Below the pieces are notes generated by a model. That model was not told where the DNA came from. It made no database searches and worked only from the letters and a program-made list of their open reading frames with translations. A DNA stretch of 64,000 bases from Nitrospira sp. GTDB lineage: Bacteria > Nitrospirota > Nitrospiria > Nitrospirales > Nitrospiraceae. Every line of letters starts with the position of its first letter. Within the stretch, counting starts at the first letter, position 1. This document shows positions 1,862-56,675 of the stretch, piece after piece. The stretch spans positions 12,540 to 76,539 of the forward strand of contig JARFPM010000004.1 of NCBI GenBank assembly GCA_030444405.1, in the 5' to 3' direction. The translations under genes and the position numbers were made by a program.

Positions 1862-2700
1862 GGTTTCCTTCCCACAATCAGAAGACTGCCGCGTAAATGC
1901 GGTACGAGATAGAACGGCCATTTGGCCCAATCGATGCCGTGCTGGCTCACAGACTGCCGGCATTGCTGTGTATCCTCGCCGAGAAAGAACCGGGACTCAG
2001 CGATGTCGAACCCGGTTTGGCGCAGTATGTCGACCAATTCATGCATGGCGTATTCGCGGGCATGGGGTCTCCACTCATCATCCGGATTGTTATATCCCGG
2101 TGGCGCAAGCCGGTCATTCGGCGTGCGCCCGATCAGAAGCTTGAACACATTCCCGATCCGTGTCACGTTCGGGGTCGTGAGCACCACATGTCCACCCGAT
2201 GGCAATAGGCGATAGGCTTCTGCGAGTAAATGGAACGGCGAGGTCAGATGCTCAATGATCTCCAGCGCAAACACGAGCTGTACCGAGGCATCTGGAAGAG
2301 GCACTTTCTCGGAATACCCTTTGCCCAGAAACTGCCCCCCTGCCGGATCGAGATTGACAGTATGAATGTCTACCTGCACATCTCGCTGCATGAAGTGAAC
2401 GAACTCGTCTGACACCATCAGACCTGCACCAAACAATTGAGCCGAGTGTGTGTAATTCAGCCTGCGCAAGAGTCTCAACAGGCTTCCAGGAAACGGGCCT
2501 AGATCGACGATCACCTGGTTCTCGGACGGCAATCTGCGTAAGCCACTCCTCAAGGCCACGTGCAATCGGTCTCGGCATTTCATTGCATGATGCATGGGAA
2601 TGGCAAAGCGTGTGTCGCCTTGCCCAAACGCCTCGTAGGAAGACGGCTGGTACGTCCTCAATAGCTCAAGAAAACGATGCCTGGTCAGTTCATATGACAT
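1843..2700 (-). CDS. class I SAM-dependent methyltransferase
   Basis: ORF 1843..2997. Motifs VIVDLGPFPGSLL, FALEIIEHL, GGHVVLTTPN. Start set at MSYELT (ATG 2700-2698), which shares one base with the TGA of the upstream gene (TGATG). Confidence 0.75.
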   Translation of the reverse strand: MSYELTRHRFLELLRTYQPSSYEAFGQGDTRFAIPMHHAMKCRDRLHVALRSGLRRLPSENQVIVDLGPFPGSLLRLLRRLNYTHSAQLFGAGLMVSDEFVHFMQRDVQVDIHTVNLDPAGGQFLGKGYSEKVPLPDASVQLVFALEIIEHLTSPFHLLAEAYRLLPSGGHVVLTTPNVTRIGNVFKLLIGRTPNDRLAPPGYNNPDDEWRPHAREYAMHELVDILRQTGFDIAESRFFLGEDTQQCRQSVSQHGIDWAKWPFYLVPHLRGSLLIVGRKPCGQSF

Positions 2701-4031
2701 CACACACTCGTTGTCTGTGGAGAGACTCGTCTCTGAAAAAGCAAAGATCGCACGGTCTGACGGTGCGGTATCAAAGCCACCGAAAGCATCATGAAGCATG
2801 GTAATACGGGCAACGCATAGCGACCAGCTTCCACGGTGAATGGAACATAGCCCGCCGTGAGTCCTACCGGAAAGAGATAGAGCGGCAGAAGATCCCGCCA
2901 TCGCTTTCGATAAACCCAGGCGCTGCACATGGCGACAAATATAAATCCAGGCATCAAGAAAAGTCGCTTGAGCAGACTGTAGATTGCCACGGCCCATCCT
3001 CGCTCGACAGCATCCGTCCGTAATCCCTGCACCAGACCGCCCTCCTCATTGACTAGATAGAACGAGTTGCCGATCCAGAAATCCCACACCCTTGTGAAGG
3101 TCAAACCGACATAGCCGATAGGGTCGGCTGCGATCCGACTCATGCCTTTTTTGCGCAACAGCTGATCGGTCTGCACATCGTACATCGCGTGCGCATAGGG
3201 GAGCGGGGTGATGCCGGCACTCTCCCAGATAGCTTGCTCGCGCGCCGGCGGCATCGGCCAACTTCCTCGAGAAACCGGATCACTGCCCATCCATAATCCC
3301 GCCCCCACCCCGGCTGACACAGGAATGATGTGATGAAATACGACGTAGTTTCGTACTGACCACGGCGCGACCAGCGTAAGGCAGGTCGCGCCATACACAA
3401 GGACGTAGGCCATCTTTTGCGAAAGTCGATCTGTGCTGACCCATATGAGCCCCGTCAGAAGCACCGCCAGAACCAGAACCACTGGTTTGCATAGGATGGT
3501 TAAGCCAGCTACGAGACCCATGAACGCATATTGACGTTGAGATGGGCTCTGGCCACACATGATAGCGGCCCACAGCCAGACGCTGATCAAAAGGGTGAGA
3601 AGCGCTTCGCTCCGAATCCTCGGATCATATGTCCAATAGGCGGGATAGATGAACACGAGAGCGGCGGTCCAAGCCCCGACCCATGAGCCCCACAATGCGG
3701 TTCCGACTCGATAGATACACCACGCAGTGCCAAGATCGAACAAGACGTGTAGAATCGGTACCCATTCCGGGCGATGGCCCACCACGACATAGAAGCATGC
3801 AAGCACCGCTGGATAGAGGGGACCAACGTGTGCAGCCGGATTGACTCCGTCGAGTGTGAACTGGTGGAGGGTCGCCAGATTCCACGCCAACGTATCGAAC
3901 AATTGATCGACGGCAAACGCATGGCCAGGAGCATGCCAAATGACCAAGGCTCGGGCGAAGAGACCGACAACAATTGCAGAGAGAAGGAGCATCAGGGGTT
4001 TCCCTATGATTGGATAATCGGAAGAATTCAT
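2700..4031 (-). CDS. polytopic membrane glycosyltransferase, GT39/ArnT-like (PMT_2 type)
   Basis: 443-aa ORF with many hydrophobic segments. Acidic first loop AVDQLFDTLAW, GPLYP motif, and an overall pattern typical of undecaprenyl-phosphate-sugar dependent GT-C transferases. Confidence 0.7.
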   Translation of the reverse strand: MNSSDYPIIGKPLMLLLSAIVVGLFARALVIWHAPGHAFAVDQLFDTLAWNLATLHQFTLDGVNPAAHVGPLYPAVLACFYVVVGHRPEWVPILHVLFDLGTAWCIYRVGTALWGSWVGAWTAALVFIYPAYWTYDPRIRSEALLTLLISVWLWAAIMCGQSPSQRQYAFMGLVAGLTILCKPVVLVLAVLLTGLIWVSTDRLSQKMAYVLVYGATCLTLVAPWSVRNYVVFHHIIPVSAGVGAGLWMGSDPVSRGSWPMPPAREQAIWESAGITPLPYAHAMYDVQTDQLLRKKGMSRIAADPIGYVGLTFTRVWDFWIGNSFYLVNEEGGLVQGLRTDAVERGWAVAIYSLLKRLFLMPGFIFVAMCSAWVYRKRWRDLLPLYLFPVGLTAGYVPFTVEAGRYALPVLPCFMMLSVALIPHRQTVRSLLFQRRVSPQTTSV

Positions 4032-4768
4032 TTGATACAGATCCCGATTAAATTGGTATCGTCTGCAATCCCTTCGCGATACTCGATATCGTCAGGAACA
4101 ATTTCATGTAGGGCCGGCCCTCCCTGTACTCGACTAATCACGCTTCCGAGCCAATGACGAATAGGTCGCGGAACGCAATTGCGGAGTCCCGCGGGATCCA
4201 AATTGCGCACGGTATCCATGGAGCGTTCAACCGTCTTGAGGCGATGTCCTTGGCGACGACCGTACCAGCGAATCGTTGGAAAATGGGGTGCGAGCAGGGC
4301 CTTGAATTCCTCATGCGTATATTCACGAACGTGATAGGGATCGTTGGGAATCACGCCCCGACCCTTTCCGTGCGGCGTGAAGATGACGAGCACGCCGTTT
4401 GATTTCAGCACCCGAGTCAGTTCAGACACAAAACGATGATCATCCTGGATATGCTCGATCGTGTCCTGCGAAACAATGCAGTCGAATGACGCATCACGGA
4501 AGCCCAATGCGCACCCATCCATCGCGAGAAATGCCACGTTCGATCGAGGATAATCAGCCCGGCTGTTAGCCACCACGTCCAGGGCACAGTCGATGCCCAC
4601 GATTCGACCAGCACGGGCACCCAAATAGTCGCTGCCGTAACCGGTTCCACATGAAAGGTCTAGAACGCACCGCTGTTCAAGCGGCCCAAGTTGGCGAGCC
4701 GCCCACACATACCCAGAGAAATTCACCACATGTTGCGTATCGGTCGGATAAGCTGCTCTTCGTTCCAC
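4028..4768 (-). CDS. class I SAM-dependent methyltransferase (Methyltransf_11 type)
   Basis: VLDLSCGTGYGSDYL (motif I), VGIDCALDVV, FDCIVSQDTIEHIQD, NGVLVIFTP. ATGA overlap with the downstream GT39-like gene. Confidence 0.85.
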   Translation of the reverse strand: MERRAAYPTDTQHVVNFSGYVWAARQLGPLEQRCVLDLSCGTGYGSDYLGARAGRIVGIDCALDVVANSRADYPRSNVAFLAMDGCALGFRDASFDCIVSQDTIEHIQDDHRFVSELTRVLKSNGVLVIFTPHGKGRGVIPNDPYHVREYTHEEFKALLAPHFPTIRWYGRRQGHRLKTVERSMDTVRNLDPAGLRNCVPRPIRHWLGSVISRVQGGPALHEIVPDDIEYREGIADDTNLIGICIK

Positions 4769-8444: not shown

Positions 8445-9609
8445 GCCGGATGACTCCCAGGTCCTGGCCAACCCATTGACGCAGTTGCTCTACGATCGCC
8501 GTCCAGGAGAACCTCGTTTCGACAAATTGGCGCCCCTGCCTACCCAACACCGCACACAGACCAGGATCGTTCAACAGGGCAAGGATCGCATCGGCCAGCG
8601 GACTCGGATCGTCCGGCTGGACAAGCTGCACACCACTGTCCGAAGTAAATGTTGATACGACGCTCGGGATCGCGCTTGCGACAACCGGACGATGACAGGC
8701 TAAATAGTCAAAGAGTTTCACCGGCGACGTTTCTCCTCGATCCCCGCGGAATGGTGCAACACACACGCTCATGGCACCAATCCAAGTTGGCACCTCCCAG
8801 TAAGGGACTCGACCAACCCACATAATACTGCCATCGAGTCCCATCCCCTTGGCCTGTTGTTTCAGTTCTTCCGTCGCTTCCCCGTCCCCCACAAAGAGTA
8901 GCTCAGCCGCGGGATAGACCCGTTTGACAAAAATCATCGCGTCGAGCAGACAAGCCAACCCCTGGTATCGATAGAAGCTTCCTACGAACCCAACGTATGG
9001 ACAATTCGGCACAAGACCCAGTTCTAGGCGACAGGCCACCGCATCTCGCGCGGCAAACCGTTGCACATCGGTTCCACTCGGAAGGACGACGATCCGCTCG
9101 AGCGGGACCCCATACCGTTCCTGAAGCAATGCCCGCAACCCCTCCGTCAGAACAACAACGCGATCGCAGCGTTTCAACGCCAGCTGCGCCAACAGATGCT
9201 TGAACCCACGTACGAACTTTCTCTGGTTCCCAGGCCATTGGGGAACCGGTTCGCCGTTGACTTCGCAGACGCACGGCACGCGGAACAATTTGGCTAAGAT
9301 CAGCGCATGCGGACTGTCCATCCACCGGTAGTACACGATATCCGGTCTGGTCACGAGCGCCCGCATCAGGCCACGCATGAACGACAGTAGTGCGTACGAC
9401 AGCGGACGCACCAGCGGCAGATGGATCAGATGAATCGGAACGACGGCGCAAGCCCGTTGTATCAATGCCGACCGATACCGAGGTGGAAAGACCGTCACCC
9501 TGTCCCCCACTTTGGCCAGGGTATCGGCCAACCTCCAGATTCGGACCAGTCCGACCGGATCATGCGGGGCATCCGGCTCATACCAATAGCAAAAGAGAAA
9601 CCACGTCAC
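8422..9609 (-). CDS. glycosyltransferase family 4
   Basis: ORF 8422..9690. C-terminal block SVCVAPFRGDRGETSPVKLFDYLACHRPVVAS. Probable GTG start at 9609-9607, forming a GTGA overlap with the stop of the Wzy-like gene (9606-9608). Confidence 0.8.
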   Translation of the reverse strand: MTWFLFCYWYEPDAPHDPVGLVRIWRLADTLAKVGDRVTVFPPRYRSALIQRACAVVPIHLIHLPLVRPLSYALLSFMRGLMRALVTRPDIVYYRWMDSPHALILAKLFRVPCVCEVNGEPVPQWPGNQRKFVRGFKHLLAQLALKRCDRVVVLTEGLRALLQERYGVPLERIVVLPSGTDVQRFAARDAVACRLELGLVPNCPYVGFVGSFYRYQGLACLLDAMIFVKRVYPAAELLFVGDGEATEELKQQAKGMGLDGSIMWVGRVPYWEVPTWIGAMSVCVAPFRGDRGETSPVKLFDYLACHRPVVASAIPSVVSTFTSDSGVQLVQPDDPSPLADAILALLNDPGLCAVLGRQGRQFVETRFSWTAIVEQLRQWVGQDLGVIRHAHSRVL

Positions 9610-10988
9610 ACGGCCTCCTGTGGCTTGACCGATGGGTCGGCCTGTGTTGACAGGGTCGGCAATAGCATGACCAGCCCGGCACACAGCCAAAACGGCTCCA
9701 TAATGCGGATGATGATGAATGTGTTGGCTCCGATCCCGTGCGCGAGCATGGCGACGAGAGCCAAGAGAAACCCGTGGGCCAACCCTTTGGCAAAGGAGTC
9801 CGTTTGAGACAAGAAGGACTCACGCGCACAGCGCCAAAGACGGTAGATAATAAACCCGAAGGCGCCTAATCCAGCGAGACCGGTCTCTCCGATGATTTTG
9901 ACGTATTGCGCATCAGCCCATGCATACCCGGTAATTCCTCGCCCGAGGATAGGATCATGGACCCAGTCTTTGAGAACATAGGCCCATGACTTCAGGCGTT
10001 CCGTTGTCGAGAGGTCCAGGCCCACATTACCCACTTTGATCTCTCCGCCATATTGACGGCCAAAAAATGTTTCGTTGACCCGTTGTTTCACATTGGCAGG
10101 CGCCAGCAATGGAACCAATGCAATGATGACAAGCAAGACGGTAAGCACTCGCGGGCGTCTCCACTGAGTCAACCCGACCGCCATCAGCAGGACGACACCG
10201 GCCAGGTAAGAAGAACGCGACAAGGTGGCCATCAAGGCCAAGACGGCAAAACCACCGAGCACCAACAATGCGACGCGAATCGGACCAAACTGAACATGCA
10301 ATAAGAGCCCGGTCATGATGGCCAGCAGGAACACCAAGTAGCCGCCCAACGTATTCGGCTCTCCGATTTCACCTTCAAATGGCGCTGAGGCACGTTGGCC
10401 GCTTGGTATTTGTGAAATTGCGTACAAGCTGACAATAAGGCCAACGGTAAGCAGGGCCACCACGAGCCCTACCACCTGTTGCTGAGACCGCACGTGGTTG
10501 ACGACCATAAAAAATACGAAAAAATATTCGAAGTACTTCAGAACAAAGAAAAACCCTGTCATTGGTCTGACATGACCGTTCAGGACACCAACTAAAGTTG
10601 AGACAACACAGATCACCATGTACACAGCGATTGGTCGGTTCAGTGGTGTCTCACGAAATAAAGCCAGTTCACGATAGACGATGTTCTTGACCAACCAACT
10701 GAATCCAATGATAACTAATAAAATGTCGTCCATGCGAAACGACAGCTCTCGGCCCCCGACACCACGTCCTTCGATCCGCCCGATCGCGACCTCAGGCGAC
10801 AACAGCATGGAAGCAATCAGTAGGTAGAGAGCCGCAGAGACGGAGGTGAAGGCCGTCAGAACGATCAACAATCCCATGATGGCTTGTATGCCGACCGTGG
10901 GGGTCGTGAGTGTGAGACCAACTGCGATGACGGCGGCTAGTACAGCGATAACCAGACTATCTTGGGGACTGATGGTTGCTTGTTGCAT
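9606..10988 (-). CDS. O-antigen ligase / Wzy-type polymerase family membrane protein
   Basis: 460 aa with about 10-12 TM segments. Wzy_C-like loop LALMATLSRSSYLAGVVLLMAVG. Sits in the locus between Wzc and the GTs. Confidence 0.75.
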   Translation of the reverse strand: MQQATISPQDSLVIAVLAAVIAVGLTLTTPTVGIQAIMGLLIVLTAFTSVSAALYLLIASMLLSPEVAIGRIEGRGVGGRELSFRMDDILLVIIGFSWLVKNIVYRELALFRETPLNRPIAVYMVICVVSTLVGVLNGHVRPMTGFFFVLKYFEYFFVFFMVVNHVRSQQQVVGLVVALLTVGLIVSLYAISQIPSGQRASAPFEGEIGEPNTLGGYLVFLLAIMTGLLLHVQFGPIRVALLVLGGFAVLALMATLSRSSYLAGVVLLMAVGLTQWRRPRVLTVLLVIIALVPLLAPANVKQRVNETFFGRQYGGEIKVGNVGLDLSTTERLKSWAYVLKDWVHDPILGRGITGYAWADAQYVKIIGETGLAGLGAFGFIIYRLWRCARESFLSQTDSFAKGLAHGFLLALVAMLAHGIGANTFIIIRIMEPFWLCAGLVMLLPTLSTQADPSVKPQEAV

Positions 10989-11011
10989 GACACGGAGGCT
11001 CCTCTGTCGGG

Positions 11012-13168
11012 TTATCGGTGCTCATACCGATAGAGTCCGTACTCCGGCGTCACTTCCGACTTCACATTGGTCAGGACCACGCCAAGAACATTCGCCTGGG
11101 CATGGTCGAGTAGGAATTTGGCTCGCTTCAGGGCGTTCCGCCCGATCCGACCGACCTGATACACCAAGATGGTCCCATCGACACGCGAACTGAAGGCCAC
11201 CGCGTCCGTAACCGGAAGAATTGGTGGCGTATCGATCAGTACAATGTCGTAATCTTCTTGCATTTCCGATGTCAGCGTCTTGATCTTATTGATATTCAGG
11301 AATTCGTTCGGATTGCCCGCTTCTGACCCGCTCGTGAGGATATGAAGGTTGTCCAGTCCAGGTGTATTCATGACTCGATCGACACCAACGGTTCCAAGCA
11401 TGAGGTCCGTGGCCGAGCGGATGTAGGATCGCCATGACGTAGTCCCGAGCAAAGCATCAACCAATCCCGGTTTGCGATCCAAGCCCAACCGTTGATGTAC
11501 GATCGGTTTGCGGAGATCAGCATCCACCAACAACACCTTCATCCCTTCTTGAGCCATGGTGATCGCCAAATTGATGACGCAGGTACTCTTGCCCTCCCCT
11601 AGACCCGCACTGGTGAAAATAATCGATTTGACCCTGCGATCCATGCTGGCGAATTGAATGTTTGTTCGAAGCGAGCGAAGGCTTTCCGACAATACGGATT
11701 TTGGGTCGAGAAGGCAGATCAACTTCGATAAATCCTCCGCCACAGAGGATGGAGTATCTGGAGGCAAAGCCTCTTGGGCCATATCTTTGAGGGCTTTGTG
11801 ATCGAACTGGGGAATGATTCCCAGGACTGGAACTTTGAGGAACTCCTCGACTCCTTCAATGGTTCCTATGGACGTATCAAACGATTCACGACCGAACGCG
11901 AGCACAATGCCCAGAAAGCATCCCATCAGCGATCCGATCATCAGGTTCAATGTGATGTTCGAGGCATTGATCGGCTGCGTCGGGGTCATGGCTGGAGCGA
12001 TAATCGCCACTTCTTCAATACGCTCCGCTCCTTTGATCAACAATTCCTGGTGTTTGGCCTTCAAGGTCGCGAGAAGATCCGTATTTACTTTGACCTCGCG
12101 TTCCAAACGACTCATGTGAATCGCCGCCCGTGGATACCCAAGATAGCGCTGTCGATAGTGACTTCGCTGTTCTTGGAGCGCCCTCTCCCGATCGATGAGG
12201 GTAGCGACCTTTGACTTCAACTCTCGGACCATTTCGGATTTGACGTTGTCGATCTTCTTCTGTTGCTCGGTGACTTGGGGATGATCAGGCGTGTAATTGA
12301 TAAGCAATGTATCTCGTTCTTGGATCAGGTCCAGCAGCCGCTGATTTAGGATTGTGAGCAGAGCATTTTGCTCTTCGGTGAAGATCCGCCCCGTCTGATT
12401 GCCGATCACGGCATCTGATCGTTTCAAGACATCGATTTGTCGCTCGCCCTCGGCTCGCTTCCGCAATACTTCGTTATACTGTTCTTCAAGTTTAGTGAAG
12501 GTGTCCAACGCCGCTCTGGCTTCGTCCGAAAGGAACACTTGACCTTCATTTTCCTTAAATGCTCGCAGCGCTTCTTCTGAATCATTGAGACGCTTTTCCA
12601 AATTATCCACCTGTTCTTCTACGAACCGGCGGGATTCGGTAACGAGTCGATTGCGCGTGGCGATATTTTCTACTCGGTAGGCCGTCGCGGCGGAATTCGC
12701 CATTCGCTCCGCTTGATCCGGCTGATCCGAAGTGGCTGAGATACGGATAATGTTGGTATCACCCTCGCGTTGCGCCGTAATTTCTTGACCCAGATCGTAG
12801 ACAATATTCAAATAGGTGGCGGAACGCTTCTCCTCTTCCGATGCATTGTGAGTGACTCGTCCGAGATCCACCGCCACCCGCTCCATGACCGGGAAGCTCC
12901 GGATGAACTCGATCTGAGTACCAAGATCATTCACGTTGGAATAGGAGAGAGATTCCAACACTTGTTGGGCCATGGTCGTACTGCGCTCAAACTTCACTCT
13001 CGCGGCAGCTTCGTAAATCGGGCTCGGCTTGAGAAGCTCTGAAAAGAGGAATGTGAACAGGACCACCATGACGGTGGAAAGCAGGATCAAGTATTTGCGT
13101 TTCTTGAGGATCAGCCAGTAGTCGATGACGTTCAGTTCATATTGTGCCATGGGTCGCCTCGTCTCCAA
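11012..13168 (-). CDS. polysaccharide co-polymerase / tyrosine autokinase (Wzc/GumC-like)
   Basis: 718 aa. N-terminal Wzz-type TM and a long coiled coil. Second TM, then Walker A SAGLGEGKSTCVINLA, Walker A' VLLVDADLRKP, Walker B YDIVLIDTPPILPVTDA. Tyr-rich tail PEYGLYRYEH. Confidence 0.9.
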   Translation of the reverse strand: METRRPMAQYELNVIDYWLILKKRKYLILLSTVMVVLFTFLFSELLKPSPIYEAAARVKFERSTTMAQQVLESLSYSNVNDLGTQIEFIRSFPVMERVAVDLGRVTHNASEEEKRSATYLNIVYDLGQEITAQREGDTNIIRISATSDQPDQAERMANSAATAYRVENIATRNRLVTESRRFVEEQVDNLEKRLNDSEEALRAFKENEGQVFLSDEARAALDTFTKLEEQYNEVLRKRAEGERQIDVLKRSDAVIGNQTGRIFTEEQNALLTILNQRLLDLIQERDTLLINYTPDHPQVTEQQKKIDNVKSEMVRELKSKVATLIDRERALQEQRSHYRQRYLGYPRAAIHMSRLEREVKVNTDLLATLKAKHQELLIKGAERIEEVAIIAPAMTPTQPINASNITLNLMIGSLMGCFLGIVLAFGRESFDTSIGTIEGVEEFLKVPVLGIIPQFDHKALKDMAQEALPPDTPSSVAEDLSKLICLLDPKSVLSESLRSLRTNIQFASMDRRVKSIIFTSAGLGEGKSTCVINLAITMAQEGMKVLLVDADLRKPIVHQRLGLDRKPGLVDALLGTTSWRSYIRSATDLMLGTVGVDRVMNTPGLDNLHILTSGSEAGNPNEFLNINKIKTLTSEMQEDYDIVLIDTPPILPVTDAVAFSSRVDGTILVYQVGRIGRNALKRAKFLLDHAQANVLGVVLTNVKSEVTPEYGLYRYEHR

Positions 13169-51220: not shown

Positions 51221-51733
51221 ATGACTACACCCAGCCATCACGAACACAAAGCCCATGCACCCAGCTCAATCGGGTGCATGGTCATTACCTGTAGCGATAC
51301 CCGTACGCCTGAAACCGACACCAGTGGTCAACTGATTCGCAAGCTCCTAGAAGAGCGAGGCCATACGGTGGTCGGGTACCATCTCGTGAAGGACGACCCG
51401 GCGCAGATCCAACTGTGGATCGCGCGAAGCACGGCCAACGAAGCGGTGCAGGCCATCGTTATCAATGGCGGCACCGGCATTTCCCGTCGGGATTCAACGT
51501 TCGAGGCGGTGGATGCCATGTTGGAAAAGCGGCTCGATGGATTCGGCGAAATCTTTCGGTTGCTGACCTACCAAGACATTGGCTCACCAGCGATCATGAG
51601 TCGGGCCACTGCCGGCATCATCAAAGGCCGGGCTCTCTTTTCCACTCCGGGCTCAGAAGACGCCGTCCGCCTCGCGATGGAAAAGCTGATTCTTCCGGAG
51701 CTGGGCCACCTTATCCAACAGCTCACCAGGTAG
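51221..51733 (+). CDS. moaB: molybdenum cofactor biosynthesis protein B
   Basis: MogA/MoaB fold: VITCSDTRTPETDTSGQ, INGGTGISRRDSTFEAV, FSTPGSEDAV. Confidence 0.88.
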   Translation: MTTPSHHEHKAHAPSSIGCMVITCSDTRTPETDTSGQLIRKLLEERGHTVVGYHLVKDDPAQIQLWIARSTANEAVQAIVINGGTGISRRDSTFEAVDAMLEKRLDGFGEIFRLLTYQDIGSPAIMSRATAGIIKGRALFSTPGSEDAVRLAMEKLILPELGHLIQQLTR

Positions 51734-51878
51734 CCCCTCTTCCCGACTCTCGACGCCTTCCTCCTAAGTTCGGCTCATCCGACCTGACAGCCGTTTCTGA
51801 CTCCCCCTCAAGAATCCCGTCCCATCCGTCGATAAGTACATAGGCCGGTCCAACTACGAGTTCGAGGTATGCCGAAAA

Positions 51879-52724
51879 ATGGTAATTAGGGCGTTTCGTA
51901 ACCATGTGGTAGGCTGGCGGCCGCATGGGAACAGGGCCCAATCGGATTTTGGGTGTGCAGCCAACTTCTTGTGGGGACGCAAACGCGTCTTTTGTGGTTC
52001 GTTTCGCGTCAATCGGACTCGGCGCGGCTATGTCAAATGCCGCACCTGTCACAGACAGAAGAGCCTCGCGAAACTCCGGCGCGAGATTGCGATCCTGGAG
52101 GGGGTTCTATCAGCAGGTCCCAGCCTATTGGTTGGCGGATGACCTGGGGGTCGATCCCAAGGTCATCAGTCGGGTCTACCAGAAATTGCGGGCGGCGTTG
52201 TTCCACGTCGCCGAATTGGAAGGCATGGCCAGTAAACTCTCGGGCGAGATCGAGCTGGACGAAGCCTATTTCGGCGGGCGACGCAAGGGCCACGTCGGTC
52301 GGGGAGCCGCTGGCAAAAGCGTCGTCTTCGGGCTACTGGAGCAGGATGGGCGCATGTATACAGAAGGTGGGGGAGCATGTGTCGGCGGAAACCCTCATGG
52401 CCCACATTTAGACCACCACCCGCAAAGGCTCCGTCTACTACACGATGCCTTCCGGGGCTATCAATCGTTGCGGCGCTATGGTAAACATCACACCGTCAAT
52501 CACAAAGAGCCTGGTCGATGCCAGGACCAAGAACCATATCAACGGAATCGACGGCTTCTCGTCGTTTGCCAAGCATATTTTGCACAATTACCGAGTCGTG
52601 TCCAAGTATCACTTCCCGAAGTATCTGGAAGTATCTGAAGGAAATTGAGTACCGGTTCAACCACCGCAAGGAAAACCTCTTCAAGCTCTTCTTGCGGTGT
52701 TTCTTCGGTTACGTTTCGCCCTAA
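51879..52724 (+). pseudogene. IS1595/ISXO2-like transposase, multiply frameshifted
   Basis: Homologous segments are scattered over three frames. They are the zinc ribbon YVKCRTCHRQKSL (ORF 51879), IELDEAYFGGRRKGHVGRGAAGKSVVFGLLEQDG and DAFRGYQSLRRYGKHHTVNH (ORF 51925), HVSAETLMAHI (ORF 51953), HINGIDGFSSFAKH (ORF 52445) and EIEYRFNHRKENLFKLFL (ORF 52518). At least four frame changes are needed to join them. Confidence 0.8.
51881..51903. repeat. IS left terminal inverted repeat
   Basis: GGTAATTAGGGCGTTTCGTAACC. The reverse complement of the right end is GGTAATTAGGGCGAAACGTAACC. Confidence 0.85.
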
Positions 52725-52729
52725 TTACC
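52707..52729. repeat. IS right terminal inverted repeat
   Basis: GGTTACGTTTCGCCCTAATTACC. Confidence 0.85.
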
Positions 52730-52736
52730 CGAAAAA

Positions 52737-55022
52737 ATGATCATTATGCCATCTGATTCAGACAAGCCCCATGGTCTGACACGTCGGGAACTGGTCCGAC
52801 TACTGGGCACATCGGCCGGTCTGGCCTGTCTCGCCCCCCTGGCCGGCTGTGGCAGCTTCTGGGAACGCCAAGCGGCCATCCCCGTCGATAGCTGGCACAA
52901 GGGTGTCTGCCGATTCTGCGGAACCGGTTGCGGCGTCATGATTGGCCTCAAAGACAACAAGGTGGCGGACGTCAAGGGAGACGACGACGCCCACAACCGC
53001 GGCCGCCTCTGTATCAAGGGCCTGGCCACCCGCGACATTCTTTATTCAGAGGGCCGCGCCCTCCACCCGATGATCCGGAAGAACGGCGAGCTCCAGCGTG
53101 CGAGCTGGGATGAAGCCATGACGCTGGTCACCCAGCGGTTCAAAGAGGCCATCCAGACCCACGGGCCGGACAGCGTCGCCTTCTACGGCAGCGGGCAGCT
53201 CTACACGCAGGAAAGCTACACCGCAAACAAACTCTTCAAGGCCGGCATTGGCACGAACAATGTGGACGGCAACCCGCGGCTGTGCATGGCCTCGGCGGTC
53301 ACCGGCTACACCACAACCTTCGGCAAGGACGAGCCAGCCGGCTGCTACGAGGACATTGACCACGCCGAGTGTTTCTTCATCACGGGCTCGAATACCCTGG
53401 AGTGCCATCCGATCATATGGGAGCGAGTGCGGGACCGCAAGCGGAGCCATCCCACCACGAAAATCATCCTCGTCGATCCACGCAAGACCCCCACAGCACG
53501 ACACGTGGACCTGCACCTGCCGATCCTACCCGGCACGGACGTCTCGCTGTACAACGCGATGATCCACGTCTTTCTGGAAGAGAATTTCATCGACGCGGAC
53601 ATGGTCGAGCACTACCTGTCGTTCCAGGAGGGCGAGCAAAAACGGACCTTCGACGACTTCAAACGACACATCGCGAAATATCAGCCGGAAACGGCGGCTA
53701 AAACCTGCGGCGTGACCGCGCGAGACATCCGCAAGGCGGCCTTCCTGTTCGCCTCGTCGAAAGCTACCCTGTCGCTGTGGACGATGGGCCTGAACCAGCA
53801 GGTGCAGGGGACTGCCTCCAACCGCTTGGTCAGTGCCATGCATCTCCTGACGGGGCACTTCGGCCGACCCGGCGCCACGCCGTTTTCGTTGACGGGCCAG
53901 CCGAACGCCTGCGGCGGCGTGCGCGACACCGGCTCGCTCGCGCATGCGCTGCCGAACGGGCGCCTCGTCGCCAACCCGAAACACCGCGAGGAAATGGAGG
54001 ACCTGTGGAAAGTCCCCCGCGGACGAATTAGCCCCAAACCGGGCTACCACACCGTCGCCCTGTTCGACGCGATGAACCGCGGAGCCGTGAAGTGCTGCCT
54101 CGTAATGTGTACGAACCCCGGTCAGACGCTCCCAAACGTCACAGCCTACCGGGAGGGTATGGAGAAAACCTTCTTGGTCGTGGTGGATGCCTTTCATCCG
54201 ACGGAAACGACAAAATTCGCCGACGTGGTGCTGCCTGCTGCACTATGGGTGGAGAAGGAAGGAGTGACAGGCAACACAGAACGGCGATACCACCTCTACC
54301 CGAAGCTCGTCGATCCGCCAGGCGAGGCCAAGAGCGACCTGGAGATTCTCGTCGATCTGGCGACCCGTCTTGGCCACGGTGATCTGATCGTGACCCGCAC
54401 GCCACGGGACGTCTGGGACGAATGGCGTAAGGTGTCGGCTCACTCGAAATACAACTTCGAGGGCATCACCTACGAACGGCTGCAGAAGGAACGCGGCATC
54501 CTCTGGCCCTGCCCCACGGAGACGCATCCGGGCACCAAGCGGCGGTACGTCCCAGGACAGGACCCCATGGCCTCAGGCACTGGCCGGTTCGACTTCTACG
54601 GCAAACCGGACGGCCGGGCCGTGGTCTGGCTCGATCACCAGGAGGAACCACTGGATCTGTACACAAACGAATACCCGCTGATCTTCAACACGGGCCGGAT
54701 CCTGGAGCACTGGCACACAATGACCATTACCGGCCAAGCGCCGACGCTCAAGGACATCCATCCCGACTACCTAGAGATCCATCCCTACGACGCCAACCGG
54801 TTCAAGATCACGGACGGTGATCCGGTGATCGTGAAGAGCCGCCGCGGGGAAGTCGAGTTGCGCGCCCGCCTGTCCGATATCGTGCAGCCCGGCATGGTGT
54901 TCGCGACGATGCACTCGGCCAGGCACCTGATCAATCAAGCCACCCACGATGCGCACGACCCCTTTTCAAAACAACCGGCGTTCAAGCGGTGCGCGGTATC
55001 GGTCCGGACGAAAACGGCCTAG
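52737..55022 (+). CDS. napA: Tat-exported bis-MGD molybdoenzyme, periplasmic nitrate reductase NapA-like (monomeric ~760-aa class)
   Basis: Twin-arginine signal LTRRELVRLLG followed by LAPLAGCGS. [4Fe-4S] motif CRFCGTGCG...RGRLCIKG. Mo-ligand region NPRLCMASAVTGY. GSNTLECHPIIWERV. Confidence 0.75.
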   Translation: MIIMPSDSDKPHGLTRRELVRLLGTSAGLACLAPLAGCGSFWERQAAIPVDSWHKGVCRFCGTGCGVMIGLKDNKVADVKGDDDAHNRGRLCIKGLATRDILYSEGRALHPMIRKNGELQRASWDEAMTLVTQRFKEAIQTHGPDSVAFYGSGQLYTQESYTANKLFKAGIGTNNVDGNPRLCMASAVTGYTTTFGKDEPAGCYEDIDHAECFFITGSNTLECHPIIWERVRDRKRSHPTTKIILVDPRKTPTARHVDLHLPILPGTDVSLYNAMIHVFLEENFIDADMVEHYLSFQEGEQKRTFDDFKRHIAKYQPETAAKTCGVTARDIRKAAFLFASSKATLSLWTMGLNQQVQGTASNRLVSAMHLLTGHFGRPGATPFSLTGQPNACGGVRDTGSLAHALPNGRLVANPKHREEMEDLWKVPRGRISPKPGYHTVALFDAMNRGAVKCCLVMCTNPGQTLPNVTAYREGMEKTFLVVVDAFHPTETTKFADVVLPAALWVEKEGVTGNTERRYHLYPKLVDPPGEAKSDLEILVDLATRLGHGDLIVTRTPRDVWDEWRKVSAHSKYNFEGITYERLQKERGILWPCPTETHPGTKRRYVPGQDPMASGTGRFDFYGKPDGRAVVWLDHQEEPLDLYTNEYPLIFNTGRILEHWHTMTITGQAPTLKDIHPDYLEIHPYDANRFKITDGDPVIVKSRRGEVELRARLSDIVQPGMVFATMHSARHLINQATHDAHDPFSKQPAFKRCAVSVRTKTA

Positions 55023-55035
55023 CGAAGGACGGACG

Positions 55036-55782
55036 ATGGCACGGACGCACCAGCAATCCCTCATCGCATTCCTGACCGTGGCCAGCCTGTGGGCCGTACC
55101 GGCCTGGGCGGCCGGCGCGCACGACGTTGTATCAAGCGAGGACATCATCCGCAGCATCGGCATCGCCGCCTCGGTGGCCGGCATCCTGCTGCTCATCCTT
55201 GTGCAGTACGTGTACCGGGAGCGCCTCCCACATGGCACCTACCACCGGCTGCTCCTGGTCGGCGTGTTCCTCCTGCCCCTCGCCGCAACCTGGAGCACGA
55301 CGGCAACGGTGATGGAAGGCACCAAGTCGGTGCAGGCCTGTAGATCCTGCCACGTCATGCATCCGTTCGTGAATGACATGACCAGCGCGAGCAGCCCCAC
55401 GCTGGCCGCCCGGCACTACCGAAACAACTGGATCGCGAAAGACCAGTGCTACGCCTGTCACGTCACCTATGGCGCGACCGGAACTCTGGCGGGCAAACGG
55501 GACGGCTTCCGGCACTGGTTGCATTATGTGACCAACACCTACCCTGACCCCATCCAGTACGTGGGAAGCTACGCCAACTCCAATTGCCTGTCGTGTCACC
55601 AGGGGACCGAGAAATGGGAGCGCGTGAAAAGCCACCAGACACTCGTGGGGGAACTGTGGGCAGATCGCATCGCGTGCATCACGTGCCATGGACCGCCGCA
55701 TCCCCTCCCTCGCGAGCGAACCGTCGCGGTGGCGAGCCGGGATGCGTCGCGCGGAACGGCGGGAGGACTTCATGGACAGTGA
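55036..55782 (+). CDS. napC: tetraheme cytochrome c, NapC/NirT/NrfH family, with N-terminal extension
   Basis: Four CxxCH motifs: CRSCH, CYACH, CLSCH, CITCH. TM segment then TATVMEGTKSVQACRSCHVM as in NapC. ATG 55036 preceded by GAAGGACGG. ORF 54949..55782. Confidence 0.72.
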   Translation: MARTHQQSLIAFLTVASLWAVPAWAAGAHDVVSSEDIIRSIGIAASVAGILLLILVQYVYRERLPHGTYHRLLLVGVFLLPLAATWSTTATVMEGTKSVQACRSCHVMHPFVNDMTSASSPTLAARHYRNNWIAKDQCYACHVTYGATGTLAGKRDGFRHWLHYVTNTYPDPIQYVGSYANSNCLSCHQGTEKWERVKSHQTLVGELWADRIACITCHGPPHPLPRERTVAVASRDASRGTAGGLHGQ

Positions 55783-56011
55783 CAAACCCAGAGCCTCGTA
55801 TCAGACGTCCACATGGGTGACCCGGCAATTGACGCTAGCCGTCAACTGCGCCATAGTCGGCCTCGCCTGTATACTGCTCTTCCTCTGGCACGAGTTTGGG
55901 GCCTGGACGATCGGCCTGGGCACCTTCGTTGGCATCCCCCTGCTGGGGGTCGCCGTGCTGCTCTACATCGGCGCCGTCATCACCGACCTGAAAACGAGGA
56001 ATGCGCTGTAA
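55772..56011 (+). CDS. small two-TM membrane protein
   Basis: MDSDKPRASYQTSTWVTRQLTLAVNCAIVGLACILLFLW...GIPLLGVAVLLYIGAVI. 11-nt overlap with the napC-like gene. No family recognised. Confidence 0.45.
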   Translation: MDSDKPRASYQTSTWVTRQLTLAVNCAIVGLACILLFLWHEFGAWTIGLGTFVGIPLLGVAVLLYIGAVITDLKTRNAL

Positions 56012-56030
56012 GGCGACCGTCCGCCGGAGC

Positions 56031-56180
56031 TTGCCTCCATCAGTCAGCCGCGCGACGGCCGGCCACTACAAGGGCCCCCTCGTCATTTCCTCGCCTGGGT
56101 CCGAAGGGGCCGTGAATTTGAGGATGGAAAAGCTGATCCTGCCGGAAGTGGGCCACTTGGTGCAACAACTCTCGAAGTGA
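56031..56180 (+). pseudogene. relic of a second moaB 3' end (last ~50 codons, no start)
   Basis: In-frame translation ..[44 protein letters not shown] aligns without gaps to the intact MoaB tail [44 protein letters not shown]. Confidence 0.75.
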
Positions 56181-56183
56181 GTC

Positions 56184-56235
56184 CTGAGTGCTGGGCGCTG
56201 AGTATCCGGAGCACTCAGCTCTCAGCACCCAGCAC
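56184..56235. terminator. compound hairpin between convergent genes (possible bidirectional terminator / REP-like element)
   Basis: ctgagtgc (56184-91) pairs with gcactcag (56211-18). gtgctgggcgctgag (56188-202) pairs with ctcagcacccagcac (56221-35) with one mismatch. Confidence 0.4.
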
Positions 56236-56240
56236 TTACA

Positions 56241-56675
56241 TTAGTCTTGTCCGATCTTCGGCTCCGAATACCCCATCTCCTGTGAAATCTTAGACTGTGC
56301 ATAACGCTTATAATGCAACAGCAGGTCACGCACGGAGACGATTCCGACGATTTCACCGTTTTTTGTGACGCCGAGATGGCGCACGCCCAACTCAGCCATC
56401 ATATCTTGTGCATCATCGACCGTCTGACTCCCTTCGATTGTACAGATCGGAGTCGTCATGATCTTCTCAACCGTCAACTTGCCCAGTGGTTTGCCGCTCG
56501 CGACCGCGAGGCGCACGATATCCGTGTCCGTCACGATGCCGGTCAATTGCTTTCCCTTTTTTACGAGCAGAGAGCCAACACGAGCCTGACGCATCGCCTT
56601 GGCGGCGCTGGCGATTGATGTCTTCGGCCCGATGGACTTTGGACGTTTGGCCATAATCTGACTCACAGTAGACAT
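56241..56675 (-). CDS. CBS-pair domain protein
   Basis: Two CBS repeats. GIVTDTDIVRLAV..., VRHLGVTKNGEIVGIVSVRDLL. Paralog of 26168..26560. Confidence 0.8.
   Translation of the reverse strand: MSTVSQIMAKRPKSIGPKTSIASAAKAMRQARVGSLLVKKGKQLTGIVTDTDIVRLAVASGKPLGKLTVEKIMTTPICTIEGSQTVDDAQDMMAELGVRHLGVTKNGEIVGIVSVRDLLLHYKRYAQSKISQEMGYSEPKIGQD

Follow-up and report, generated by a model that had tools for sequence, protein, structure and literature searches.

In soils, waters, and treatment plants the dominant nitrite oxidisers are Nitrospira, whose reduction of nitrate under anaerobic conditions is as a rule ascribed to NXR working in reverse. Some genomic islands and integrative elements, integrase-less cis-mobilisable ones included, insert at the 3' end of a gene or tRNA, which they restore; Campbell-type integration by a single crossover is also established, as are recombination hot spots located between core genes that are conserved. 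NXR and NarGHIJ have been discussed as options for nitrate reduction in Nitrospira in a 2025 comparative-genomics study, the supplement of which tabulates NapA (K02567) for some Nitrospirales genomes, with no discussion of it in the text (PMC12342949). Four layouts of the nap operon (napEDABC, napDAGHB, napCMADGH, napAGHBFLD) are listed in a 2026 review (PMC13223375).

The window analyzed here, a stretch of 64,000 nucleotides assigned to Nitrospira, contains 4.3 kb enclosed by an intact moaB and a start-less copy of the last ~47 codons of that gene. Within the interval lie a decayed IS1595-type element, a Desulfovibrio-type monomeric napA, a tetrahaem napC/nrfH-like gene, and a gene for a 79-aa protein with two transmembrane segments (2-TM; Table 1). 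The locus resembles islands that target 3' ends in that direct repeats of such an end border it on both sides (51592-51733 and 56038-56180), moaB has remained intact, the composition is deviant, and different cargo has reused the site; it differs from them in that no integrase lies in or near any copy and the repeats, which span 22 to ~47 codons, are 65-95% identical. With Campbell-type integration it shares duplicated homology on both sides, a chimeric junction (in the related locus L085), and a hypervariable interval between convergent genes; it differs in that the homology is short and divergent and no circular intermediate has been observed. We regard it as fairly likely that window positions 51734-56180 are a horizontally acquired accessory cassette that entered by recombination at the moaB 3' end, with Campbell-type topology.

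The cassette and its moaB borders

Table 1. Features of the moaB to CBS interval, in window positions
Feature	Position	Strand	Evidence
moaB, intact, 170 aa	51221..51733	+	PF00994 E 2.4e-27
Left direct repeat: functional moaB 3' end, ~47 codons + stop	51592..51733	+	BLASTP 31/48 vs relic; profile positions 12-153 of moaB 3'-end model
Cassette-linked spacer, 147 bp, from moaB stop toward napA	51734..51880	+	88% (130/147) to L085 2761-2915
Decayed IS1595 (ISXO2-like) element	51881..52729	+	23-nt terminal inverted repeats, flanking 8-bp repeat, partial PF12762
napA, monomeric-type periplasmic nitrate reductase catalytic subunit, 761 aa	52737..55022	+	DdNapA match, three Pfam domains
napC/nirT/nrfH-family tetrahaem cytochrome c gene	55033..55782	+	PF03264, four CXXCH
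79-aa two-transmembrane protein gene, third conserved cassette gene	55772..56011	+	Conserved 3' of napC-like gene
Cassette tail with ACCGTCCGCC at 56016-56025	56012..56043	+	End of DNA common to copies elsewhere
Right direct repeat: moaB 3' relic, ~47 codons + TGA	56038..56180	+	nhmmer E 7e-25
Inverted repeat (hairpin) between relic and convergent CBS gene	56187..56236	.	16-nt arms, 94% complementary
CBS-domain gene	56241..56675	-	PF00571 E 2.2e-24

The IS element and the napA-like, napC-like, and 2-TM genes that a first-pass annotation placed between two moaB ends are all present at or near where it had put them, and the moaB that it took to be intact is complete. Over its full length this gene resembles that of L001, the nearest cassette-free relative (92% amino acid identity and dS 0.48, with 0.54-0.60 for flanking genes), and nucleotide identity in 57-nt windows falls from 0.93 to 0.82 without a sharp break. 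The second moaB end was described as a gap-free match to the MoaB C-terminus with clearly lower DNA identity, and on both counts the description is accurate. The frame ending at 56180 aligns without gaps with MoaB residues 123-170 (31/48 identical, BLASTP E 9e-20; 20/27 over the final 27 residues, as counted by hand), and a profile of 81 Nitrospira moaB 3' ends matches the DNA at 56038-56179 (nhmmer, E 7e-25). At the DNA level the two copies are 65% identical over 144 nt, with 16, 9, and 26 differences at codon positions 1, 2, and 3, and a repeat search pairs 51676-51731 with 56123-56178 at 79%. That the frame is start-less is true in part: it lacks the moaB start and the 5' two-thirds of the gene, spanning only residues ~124-170, but it does contain an ATG at 56001 that overlaps the end of the 2-TM gene, with MoaB homology beginning only at ~56038-56044.

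The relic does not amount to a second moaB and is a fragment of the gene. It lacks a complete MoCF_biosynth domain and any Pfam match, matches NCBIfam MoaC/MoaB at E 3.4e-5, and is accompanied by no further MoaB-like sequence in the other frames of 55900-56240. Relative to the intact copy it shows pS 0.65 and pN 0.25, compared with pN ~0.07 for functional pairs, and the genus consensus disagrees with it at 51 of 153 positions and with the intact copy at 25. Its identity to the sampled moaB 3' ends is 62-72% throughout (64% to L001, 67% to L086), and a mosaic (change-point) test on it was not significant (p 0.65); it may come from the displaced resident gene or from a donor. To its right, the order of relic end, hairpin, and CBS gene is collinear with that of moaB end, hairpin, and CBS gene in L048, L051, L063, L043, L047, and L060; the CBS gene is the native right-hand neighbor of moaB in the genus, and the hairpin is probably a native bidirectional terminator.

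Predicted function of the cargo

The closest described relative of the NapA is the enzyme of Desulfovibrio desulfuricans ATCC 27774 (DdNapA; PDB 2NAP, 2JIO), to which it aligns over its full length in one stretch (residues 51-757 against 2jio; E 4e-245, 819 bits), whereas alignments to 3ml1, 2nya, and 1ogy break into two to three stretches. The two proteins are alike in size (~755-760 aa), in the lack of heterodimeric-type insertions, and in having no adjoining napB, which places the cassette enzyme in the monomeric subgroup; a napB-like gene was found neither within the cassette nor among genes identified in the flanks to a distance of ~3 kb on each side. Also in common are a twin-arginine (Tat) signal, recognized here from sequence only (LTRRELVRLLGTSAGLACLAPLAG at residues 14-37, including LTRRELVRL and followed by a Cys), an N-terminal [4Fe-4S] motif (C58-x2-C61-x3-C65-x27-C93, aligning to that of DdNapA), and the Mo-ligand Cys183 in NPRLCMAS, a segment identical in the alignment to the one around Cys140 of DdNapA. 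Translation may in fact begin at the ATG at 52746 and not at the annotated start, 52737. The protein stays below the equivalog cut-offs of NCBIfam NF010055 / TIGR01706 (613 and 594 bits vs 904 and 931), as is expected for the monomeric clade because these models were built on the larger heterodimeric type.

The napC-like gene adjoins napA in all related loci, and its product belongs to the NapC/NirT/NrfH family by its PF03264 score (37.1 bits, above the gathering cut-off of 24.1), its four CXXCH motifs (residues 103, 139, 185, and 215), its hydrophobic N-terminus, and the adjacency of its gene to that of a reductase. It differs from the described members in an N-terminal extension of ~100 residues with extra hydrophobic segments and is far from the curated equivalogs (NrfH 47 bits vs a cut-off of 134; NapC 20 bits). 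The 79-aa protein matches neither a Pfam nor an NCBIfam family with the threshold relaxed to E <= 1; its gene is conserved 3' of the napC-like gene in almost all of the related loci, with identities of 32-87%. Only napA, the napC-like gene, and the 2-TM gene are common to the ~35 loci, a set that has neither the napD nor the gene order of canonical nap operons. Compared with napCMADGH of D. desulfuricans, napM, napD, napG, and napH are absent, and the arrangement is not among the four operon structures of the review (PMC13223375). Since it is without napD and napB and falls outside those four types, the three-gene cluster is a candidate minimal Nap system. All three genes are under purifying selection, with omega values of 0.09 (NapA), 0.21 (NapC-like), and 0.17 (2-TM) for changes between the window and the state common to L084 and L085.

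The cargo would constitute a minimal periplasmic nitrate-reduction module composed of a Tat-exported monomeric NapA, carrying Mo-bisPGD and one [4Fe-4S] cluster, a membrane-anchored tetrahaem NapC/NrfH-type protein that is presumed to be a quinol dehydrogenase, and the 2-TM protein. NapA is predicted to be expressed and active, and electrons would pass from quinol through the NapC-like cytochrome and NapA to nitrate, with nitrite released in the periplasm; because the cassette shows no napD or napB, maturation and electron path are assumptions. Like reverse NXR and the rare NarGHI(J), such a module would reduce nitrate to nitrite for a nitrite oxidiser under anoxia, but the enzyme is of the Nap type and is predicted to be fed from the quinol pool via the NapC-like cytochrome. 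For a nitrite oxidiser, this would add a way of reducing nitrate that does not depend on reverse NXR. If it functions as predicted, a periplasmic nitrate reductase that is transferable and fed by quinol would provide some lineages with a second nitrate-to-nitrite route, which would affect models of nitrite/nitrate cycling and of NOB survival under anoxia. The first-pass annotation held that a Nap-type enzyme would be noteworthy in this lineage; it is less surprising than was assumed because NapA had already been tabulated for Nitrospirales (PMC12342949).

Horizontal transfer into the window lineage

The cassette was transferred horizontally into the window lineage after its split from the nearest sampled relative; the direction of transfer is one that we infer. 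The cassette-free comparison set comprised the 80 GTDB species-representative loci of the genus Nitrospira with the most similar moaB, all of which have the gene order AIG2-Fdx-moaB-CBS-ADH-PhzF, with moaB followed directly by CBS and no cassette between them. In the 74 of the 80 whose DNA reaches CBS, that gene lies 17-1438 bp downstream of moaB. No napA, napC-like, or 2-TM homologue was found within the DNA compared, up to 10 kb on each side, and no homologue of the spacer 51734..51880 was found downstream of moaB in any of these loci. At least nine further Nitrospira contigs do have the same three genes in the interval from moaB to CBS (L082, L083, L085, L086, L087, L092, L123/124, L125-127, and the P0012 contig).

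Comparison with L085 separates the histories of cassette and flanks. The flanking AIG2, Fdx, and MoaB genes of the two are saturated at synonymous sites (pS 0.72-0.79), whereas dS is only 0.22 for NapA and 0.16 for NapC, and the L085 counterpart of the spacer adjoins a napA copy that is 96% identical. Because these values are below the flank dS of ~0.5 between the window and cassette-free L001, the ancestor of the cassette shared with L085/L084 is younger than the species split. Window positions 52724-56043 (3320 nt) align without gaps and at 94% identity to L084 and L119-121, where the flanks are unrelated, and the alignment stops at 56043. The flank tree scatters cassette carriers over three or more positions among genomes that have none, with the cassette-free L001 as sister of the window; in the tree built from NapA, the window falls with L085/L084 and next with L086, a deep-clade genome, not with L123 and L083, which are closer by their flanks. 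The compositional shift reported by the first-pass annotation is real but smaller than the 67-70% GC of its hand-checked lines: in 400-nt windows GC is 0.595-0.655 in the cassette and 0.49-0.59 in the flanks. A check of sliding GC and GC3 agrees, with GC3 values of 0.80, 0.80, and 0.82 for the three cassette genes, 0.68 for moaB, and 0.61±0.05 for 33 long window ORFs, a mean that includes NapA itself. The central proposal of that annotation, that recombination at moaB brought in a nitrate-reductase cassette linked to this gene and left behind a second 3' end of it, is thus supported on the three points set beforehand: the shift in composition is real, the relic alignment is significant, and the relatives are cassette-free by synteny, with strongly incongruent histories of cassette and flanks.

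The IS element belongs to the IS1595 family by its 23-nt terminal inverted repeats (51881-51903 and 52707-52729, 87% complementary), its 8-bp target duplication (CGAAAAAT at 51873-51880 and CGAAAAAA at 52730-52737, 7/8 matching), and its DDE_Tnp_IS1595 transposase; the copy is decayed, its transposase ORF being split over frames and matching PF12762 (E 1.5e-7) only over profile positions 1-48 of 153. It lies 8 bp upstream of the annotated napA start, may separate the nap operon from its promoter, and interrupts a spacer that is continuous in L085. It was absent from all 122 loci searched (L001-L122) and from every other cassette copy.

Two other accounts of how the nap genes came to lie here can be set against these data. 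Delivery by an IS1595-type element, as a transposon or composite transposon, is suggested by the position of the IS directly upstream of napA and by a DDE_Tnp_1 transposase ~400 bp downstream of the cassette in L084-type copies. It is scarcely credible for the window, and was rejected, as the IS is a single copy with its own target duplication that breaks an otherwise continuous spacer, is missing from all other copies and loci searched, and is matched by no second IS or inverted repeat bounding the cassette; the IS is a later passenger, not the vehicle. Vertical inheritance, in which the cassette is ancestral between moaB and CBS, was lost many times, and the relic is a remnant of an ancient second moaB, is compatible with the single NapA clade that holds all moaB-site copies and with a cassette GC near that of the flanks in the deep clade (L092, L125, and L086). 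For the window lineage, however, it is contradicted by low cassette dS beside saturated flanks, the conflict between NapA and flank trees, the 80 empty sites, and a cassette GC3 roughly 3-4 standard deviations above that of the window genes, and is very improbable.

The moaB 3' end as a landing site

Acquisition at moaB is not unique to the window or to nap genes. Significant moaB 3' relics are also present in L086, L082, L085, L050, L068, and N. moscoviensis (L016; E 8e-7), in the last of which the relic follows a ParE toxin pair, and none is detectable in the cassette-bearing L083 and L123. Because such relics follow other cargo in other Nitrospira, and with diverse ORFs in the gap, the moaB-CBS junction is an insertion hot spot; the same site has been reused by several cassette variants and by other cargo. 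The 5' limits of the relics lie at profile positions 67-80 (codons 143-147) in 5/7 loci, at ~124 in the window, and at ~133 in L085. In L086, moaB and its own relic share 47 identical nt. The cassette-adjacent fragment of L085 is a chimera of the kind that a crossover should produce: over its 5' part it is almost the same as the moaB of L085 itself, and from ~codon 164 it is of the window type, with the last moaB codon (AGG) and everything downstream common to both. The motif G/A-C-C/T-GTCCG that follows the 2-TM stop codon recurs in L082, L086, and L087 and in L086 continues into the relic, and a nested methyltransferase module in L082 is flanked by short CGTCCGC repeats (ACCGTCCGC and GACGTCCGC). 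The locus is a clean natural example of a respiratory module spreading within a genus, in which the conserved end of a gene has served repeatedly as a landing pad and the repeats are a record of the events.

In the crossover reading favored here, moaB-derived sequence is carried at both ends of the cassette: the last codon(s) of moaB with the 147-bp spacer make up the left end, and a short tail together with the relic the right one. A direct repeat of the last ~47 codons around the insert is what would remain after one reciprocal crossover of the moaB 3' end in the chromosome with a circular molecule bearing a single moaB 3' fragment. Recombination between the repeats would free such a circle again, and the unit could thereby move among Nitrospira lineages that have the conserved moaB end. 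The intermediate was presumably circular and catalysis RecA-type rather than site-specific, although neither a circular form nor an excised or empty allele within one population has been observed. Weighing against the crossover are the low repeat identity (65% nt in the window), the cassettes without a detectable relic in L083 and L123, and the shortness of the block conserved between lineages, ~15-47 identical nt, which is marginal for RecA-dependent recombination.

The clustered relic limits and the CGTCCGC repeats of L082 fit a site-specific enzyme better than general recombination. The moaB 3' end might be the attachment site of an integrase-less, cis-mobilisable cassette that brings a replacement 3' end and depends for its movement on a recombinase of the tyrosine or serine type, whose gene would lie at another place in the genome or on a different element. 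This would suit the occurrence of relics with at least four cargo types (Nap; Nap plus methyltransferase; a ~240-bp module in L050/L068; and the ParE pair of N. moscoviensis), the presence of the motif after the 2-TM stop in all cassette lineages examined, and two independent breakpoints within 1 nt of it (L082/L087 and window/L084). We nevertheless think it fairly unlikely: apart from the IS remnant, the window insert holds only the three cargo genes and no integrase or recombinase gene, no such Pfam match occurs within 8-10 kb in any annotated locus, and no recombinase family is represented among the called genes of L081-L083, L123-L130, and the P0012 contig; moreover, the limits vary in the window and L085, the shared motif is explicable by common descent of the cassette tail, and no inverted-repeat core is evident. 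It is also conceivable that the relic is older, local, and unrelated to the acquisition, stemming from a prior partial tandem duplication of the moaB end or an earlier insertion, and that the Nap cassette arrived by double crossover in homologous flanks, with moaB serving as the left one and the stretch of relic, hairpin, and CBS as the right one. Cassette-free L050 and L068 do show moaB, ~250 bp, and then a relic, the window relic is strongly divergent (its 51/153 mismatches to consensus and pN of 0.25), and L083 and L123 demonstrate that cassette and relic are separable. Such an origin is improbable, as none of the ~25 nearest flank-tree relatives of the window has a relic and the related cassette copies in L086 and L082 likewise end in one; nor is it required, because the decay about matches neutral evolution over the cassette's own branch (dS ~0.13, or ~17 substitutions in 135 nt).

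A wider proposal, possible but fairly unlikely, is that the moaB 3' end is the attachment point of a so far undescribed family of small integrase-less Nitrospira cassettes. Each with its own moaB end, these would leave as circles through recombination between the repeats and integrate again in other lineages. A trans-acting recombinase recognizing the conserved GCCGTCCGC...ATGGAGAAGCTGATCCTGCC block might be involved, and the nap module, the N. moscoviensis ParE toxin-antitoxin pair, and the methyltransferase would be cargoes. Excision and integration are examinable in culture, as N. moscoviensis is cultured, has a complete genome, and carries a relic at the same site. Signs of tandem accretion at the site are seen in L082 and L085.

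Layout and occupancy of the moaB-to-CBS interval

The interval between moaB and the convergent CBS-domain gene holds, in the window, a cassette of three genes (napA, a tetrahaem napC-like gene and a gene for a 79-aa protein with two transmembrane segments, 2-TM), a decayed insertion sequence (IS) and, to the right of the cassette, a start-less second copy of the moaB 3' end, here called the relic. The IS and the napA-like, napC-like and 2-TM genes that the first-pass annotation had placed between two moaB ends are all present, and its identification of the relic was sound: the relic aligns gap-free with MoaB residues 123-170 (31/48 identical; BLASTP E 9e-20), is matched at E 7e-25 by a DNA profile built from 81 moaB ends of Nitrospira, and is indeed identical to MoaB at 20 of 27 terminal residues, with the reported lower DNA identity amounting to 65% between the intact moaB 3' end and the relic. 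An ATG at 56001 in the relic frame overlaps the last 2-TM codons and gives a 59-aa ORF (window 56001-56180); a 47-residue C-terminal fragment of MoaB is unlikely to fold alone.

Features of the moaB-to-CBS interval in the window and in other Nitrospira loci
Locus	Feature	Position	Strand	Detail
Window	Intact moaB	51221-51733	+	170 aa; PF00994 E 2.4e-27
Window	Spacer	51734-51880		147 bp
Window	Decayed IS1595-family element	51881-52729		
Window	Molybdopterin oxidoreductase	52737-55022		761 aa
Window	Tetrahaem NapC/NirT-family cytochrome	55033-55782		249 aa
Window	Two-TM protein	55772-56011		79 aa, no family
Window	Tail	56012-56043		32 nt
Window	Relic	56038-56180		start-less copy of last ~47 moaB codons
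Window	Hairpin	56187-56236		
Window	CBS-domain gene	56241-56675	-	convergent
L016 (N. moscoviensis NSP M-1)	moaB relic	11101-11159		E 8e-7; after ParE toxin pair
L050	Non-coding module	3787-4162		
L068	Non-coding module	2293-2660		
L025	Non-coding module	4426-4663		
L076	Non-coding module	10885-11072		

A MoaB scan in which each GTDB species was represented by a single genome yielded the 80 loci with the most similar moaB, all of them from Nitrospira or Nitrospiraceae (best MoaB 92% identical). As far as the DNA extends, all 80 have the gene order AIG2-like, ferredoxin-like (Fdx), moaB, followed directly on the opposite strand by CBS, alcohol dehydrogenase and PhzF genes, with a moaB-to-CBS gap of 17-1438 bp in the 74 loci whose DNA reaches CBS; homologues of NapA-like, NapC-like and 2-TM proteins were found in none of the 80 within the fetched DNA of up to 10 kb on each side. 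Measured against this cassette-free order, which all 80 loci share and which is that of the genus, the cassette is an insertion. A NapA search returned thousands of homologues, one of which is named "nitrate reductase [Nitrospira sp.]" by NCBI, and context look-ups located the same trio between moaB and CBS in L082, L083, L085, L086, L087 and L092, and also in L123/124, L125-127 and the contig of protein match P0012. Close copies of the cassette lie in unrelated contexts in L084, L093, L100, L119-121, L081, L088-091 and L128-130.

Cassette genes, predicted function and transfer

The oxidoreductase aligns end-to-end, in one stretch, with NapA of Desulfovibrio desulfuricans (2jio/2nap; E 4e-245), and with heterodimeric NapA enzymes it can be aligned in pieces only. 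It carries a twin-arginine signal (LTRRELVRL), the cluster motif C-x2-C-x3-C-x27-C and a Mo-ligand cysteine within NPRLCMAS; its score of 613 bits falls below the cut-off of 904 of the NCBI NapA equivalog model, which reflects the larger heterodimeric type. Its sequence marks it as a true NapA that belongs to the small, monomeric type. The napC-like product has four CXXCH motifs and scores above the Pfam NapC/NirT threshold. The 2-TM protein lacks any Pfam or NCBIfam match even at E <= 1, on which ground its assignment to NapE or another known family was rejected, and its gene lies 3' of the napC-like gene in nearly all related loci, distant ones included. The cassette contains none of napB, napD, napG/H and napM, and its gene order is not among the four nap operon structures listed in a 2026 review (PMC13223375). 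From established knowledge of these families, electrons would pass from quinol via the NapC-like cytochrome to NapA and on to nitrate. The three genes have been under purifying selection, with omega values (window copy against L084=L085) of 0.09, 0.21 and 0.17 for napA, napC-like and 2-TM, respectively. The trio is also kept as a unit well outside Nitrospira (P0016, P0034-P0056, P0067, P0120; L094-L117), where the 2-TM protein is likewise without a described family; NapA is 60-80% identical in matches named Tectomicrobia, Acidobacteria, Poribacteria, Rhodothermus marinus, Balneolales, Armatimonadaceae and Oscillochloris.

Divergence differs markedly between the cassette and its surroundings. 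Between the window and L085, whose cassette is the closest of those at the moaB site, AIG2, Fdx and MoaB are saturated (pS 0.72-0.79), whereas dS is 0.22 for napA and 0.16 for the napC-like gene; between the window and L001, the nearest sampled cassette-free relative, flanking-gene dS is about 0.5. The window and L085/L084 cassettes therefore have a common ancestor younger than the window/L001 split. Direct evidence that the cassette unit moves comes from L084 and L119-121, which match window positions 52724-56043 at 94% with no gaps and have unrelated flanks. In a neighbour-joining tree of AIG2 and Fdx, cassette carriers are scattered among cassette-free genomes in at least three distinct places and the window is sister to L001, whereas the NapA tree joins the window first to L085/L084 and next to L086, which belongs to a distant deep clade (L092, L125, L086), and puts L123 and L083, carriers that are closer by their flanks, on a different NapA branch. 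The two phylogenies are thus in conflict. A compositional shift is also evident when computed: GC is 0.60-0.655 in the cassette and 0.49-0.59 in the flanks, and GC3 of the three genes is 0.80-0.82 against 0.61±0.05 for 33 long window ORFs. Most hosts have a cassette richer in GC than its flanks; deep-clade L092 does not. In L084, whose type represents the closest cassettes outside the moaB site (94% at the nucleotide level), a DDE_Tnp_1 transposase ORF (8463-9224) lies about 400 bp downstream of the cassette and hints at a different, IS-associated relocation route.

Relics and cargo at the moaB end

The moaB|CBS site is a hot spot. A moaB-end profile detects significant 3' relics in seven loci: 3' of the cassette in the window, in L086 and, with a nested methyltransferase, in L082; 5' of the cassette in L085; and, without a cassette, after a module of ~240 bp in L050 and L068 and after a toxin pair in the cultured type strain Nitrospira moscoviensis. 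In the last (L016, NZ_CP011801.1), a ~92-95-aa ORF and then a ParE-family toxin gene (PF05016 E 9e-12) lie between moaB and CBS at 10534-11159, and the decayed relic, with indels, has the window topology with different cargo. The L086 relic has 47 identical nucleotides in common with moaB, and that of L050 is 91% identical to the moaB of L022 as against 77% to its own. On the 5' side, five of the seven relics reach codons 143-147, the window relic ~124 and the L085 relic ~133. Every cassette lineage examined has the motif G/A-C-C/T-GTCCG after the stop codon of the 2-TM gene. The methyltransferase module of L082 is bounded by ACCGTCCGC and GACGTCCGC; this SAM-methyltransferase module (PF13649 E 9e-12, minus strand; L082 13283-14046, L087 4084-4271) is nested between the cassette tail and the moaB relic.

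All sampled moaB ends are 62-72% identical to the window relic. A mosaic origin (old or foreign 5' two-thirds, native 3' third) was considered, the best identity to any relative being 63% in the former and 87% in the latter, and was dropped because comparison with a consensus built from 81 moaB ends shows no significant change-point (28/79 vs 13/58 mismatches; permutation p 0.65). Amino-acid states in common with deep-clade MoaBs (Y134, G146, QQ, S169) are suggestive only, and GC3 over the same 45 codons, 0.82 in the relic and 0.71 in intact moaB, does not differ significantly at that length. The relic may be the resident's displaced end or an end brought by the donor. Its pN is 0.25, compared with about 0.07 for functional moaB pairs, an excess about equal to neutral decay along the cassette's own branch (dS about 0.13).

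A 2025 comparative study (PMC12342949) already lists NapA (K02567) in its supplement for several Nitrospirales genomes, and its text discusses NXR, NarGHIJ and NrfAH only. Monomeric NapA, NapC-type cytochromes, IS1595 elements and hot-spot islets are known kinds; as far as literature searches reach, three points appear undescribed, namely that a minimal nap cluster of three genes forms a mobile unit, that it has a fixed landing site at the end of moaB, and that moaB relics recur, in N. moscoviensis among others.

In other genomes, unrelated low-GC ORFs occupy the larger moaB|CBS gaps. The gaps of L001 (10511-11287), L004 (2222-3069) and L031 (10511-11948) encode ORFs of 217-235 aa in DNA of 45-48% GC, against about 55% for the genomes, and are further foreign cargo at this site. 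In L082 the relic is followed by a PhdYeFM antitoxin gene instead of CBS, suggesting further accreted cargo. A non-coding module of ~170-240 bp just 3' of moaB is common to several cassette-free Nitrospira and is followed by the relic in L050 and L068; a second common module occupies the same interval in L085 (2310-2610), L076 (10557-10854), L071 and L062. In a group of five close relatives (L048, L047, L051, L060, L063; moaB at 10001-10510 or equivalent), moaB has a dS of 1.31 to the window and AIG2 and Fdx ~0.5, with amino-acid identities of 77-78% for MoaB and 89-97% for AIG2 and Fdx, which suggests that the moaB allele itself has been replaced by recombination.

Borders, mode of insertion and the IS1595 element

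Intact moaB is similar to that of L001 over its full length, with identity declining gently from 0.93 to 0.82 (57-nt windows), and a sharp recombination breakpoint within the gene was rejected for want of a break. The last moaB codon, AGG (Arg), is uncommon in the genus; with the spacer it is 88% identical to a napA-adjacent fragment in L085, and cassette-free loci hold no equivalent of the spacer, which places the imported left edge within the last moaB codons. The L085 fragment is a chimera, almost identical to L085's own moaB in its 5' part (from ~codon 133) and window-type from ~codon 164 onward, and looks like the product of a homologous crossover. At the right border, homology to the other-context copies stops at 56043 and the relic starts at ~56038-56044; relic end, hairpin and CBS are collinear with moaB end, hairpin and CBS of short-gap relatives. 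The insert thus lies between two directly repeated copies of the moaB 3' end. A search for a decayed relic 3' of the L084 cassette gave a local alignment score (24) no better than that of shuffles (22.7±3.1).

Acquisition of the cassette by recombination at moaB, as put forward in the first-pass annotation, draws support from the dS contrast, the tree conflict, the composition and the bracketing repeat. Horizontal acquisition of the cassette, through recombination at the 3' end of moaB and with a Campbell-type result, is probable: one reciprocal crossover with a circle bearing a single moaB fragment would produce the topology of the direct repeat around the insert, and the resulting repeats would permit excision and then re-insertion in other Nitrospira. 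The main rival, a site-specific recombinase working in trans, would suit the clustering of relic limits and the short repeats at the nested insertion, but those limits are also variable and no recombinase gene occurs within 8-10 kb in annotated loci, so that this route seems rather unlikely. It is improbable that the relic pre-existed and a double crossover delivered the cassette later. Vertical descent with losses, with which the conflicting NapA and flank trees are not congruent, is very improbable, and delivery by the IS the least credible of all; the IS was rejected as a vehicle on account of its own 8-bp flanking repeat and its absence from all 122 comparison loci (L001-L122).

The IS is a passenger. 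It has 23-nt terminal inverted repeats, is flanked by CGAAAAAT/CGAAAAAA (51873-51880 / 52730-52737), and encodes a broken transposase that covers profile positions 1-48 of 153 only, with other motifs in other frames; a similarity search of PLSDB plasmids gave no matches. Once it is removed, the spacer-to-napA junction is equivalent to that of L085. It is located 8 bp before the annotated napA start and may affect napA expression; a promoter/terminator consensus scan of 51600-56400 yielded no match better than expected from shuffled sequence and was uninformative for the spacer. In L085, a MITE-like element of ~200 bp (2911-3122; terminal inverted repeats CTGTAAAGTTTGATT, flanked by CCGAAAGAG) lies upstream of napA at the exact spot of the window IS1595 insertion (target CGAAAAA), and its right part is common to L084 (4605-4768), L093 and L100 at 86%. 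The same 8-9-bp target has thus been struck by two different mobile elements.
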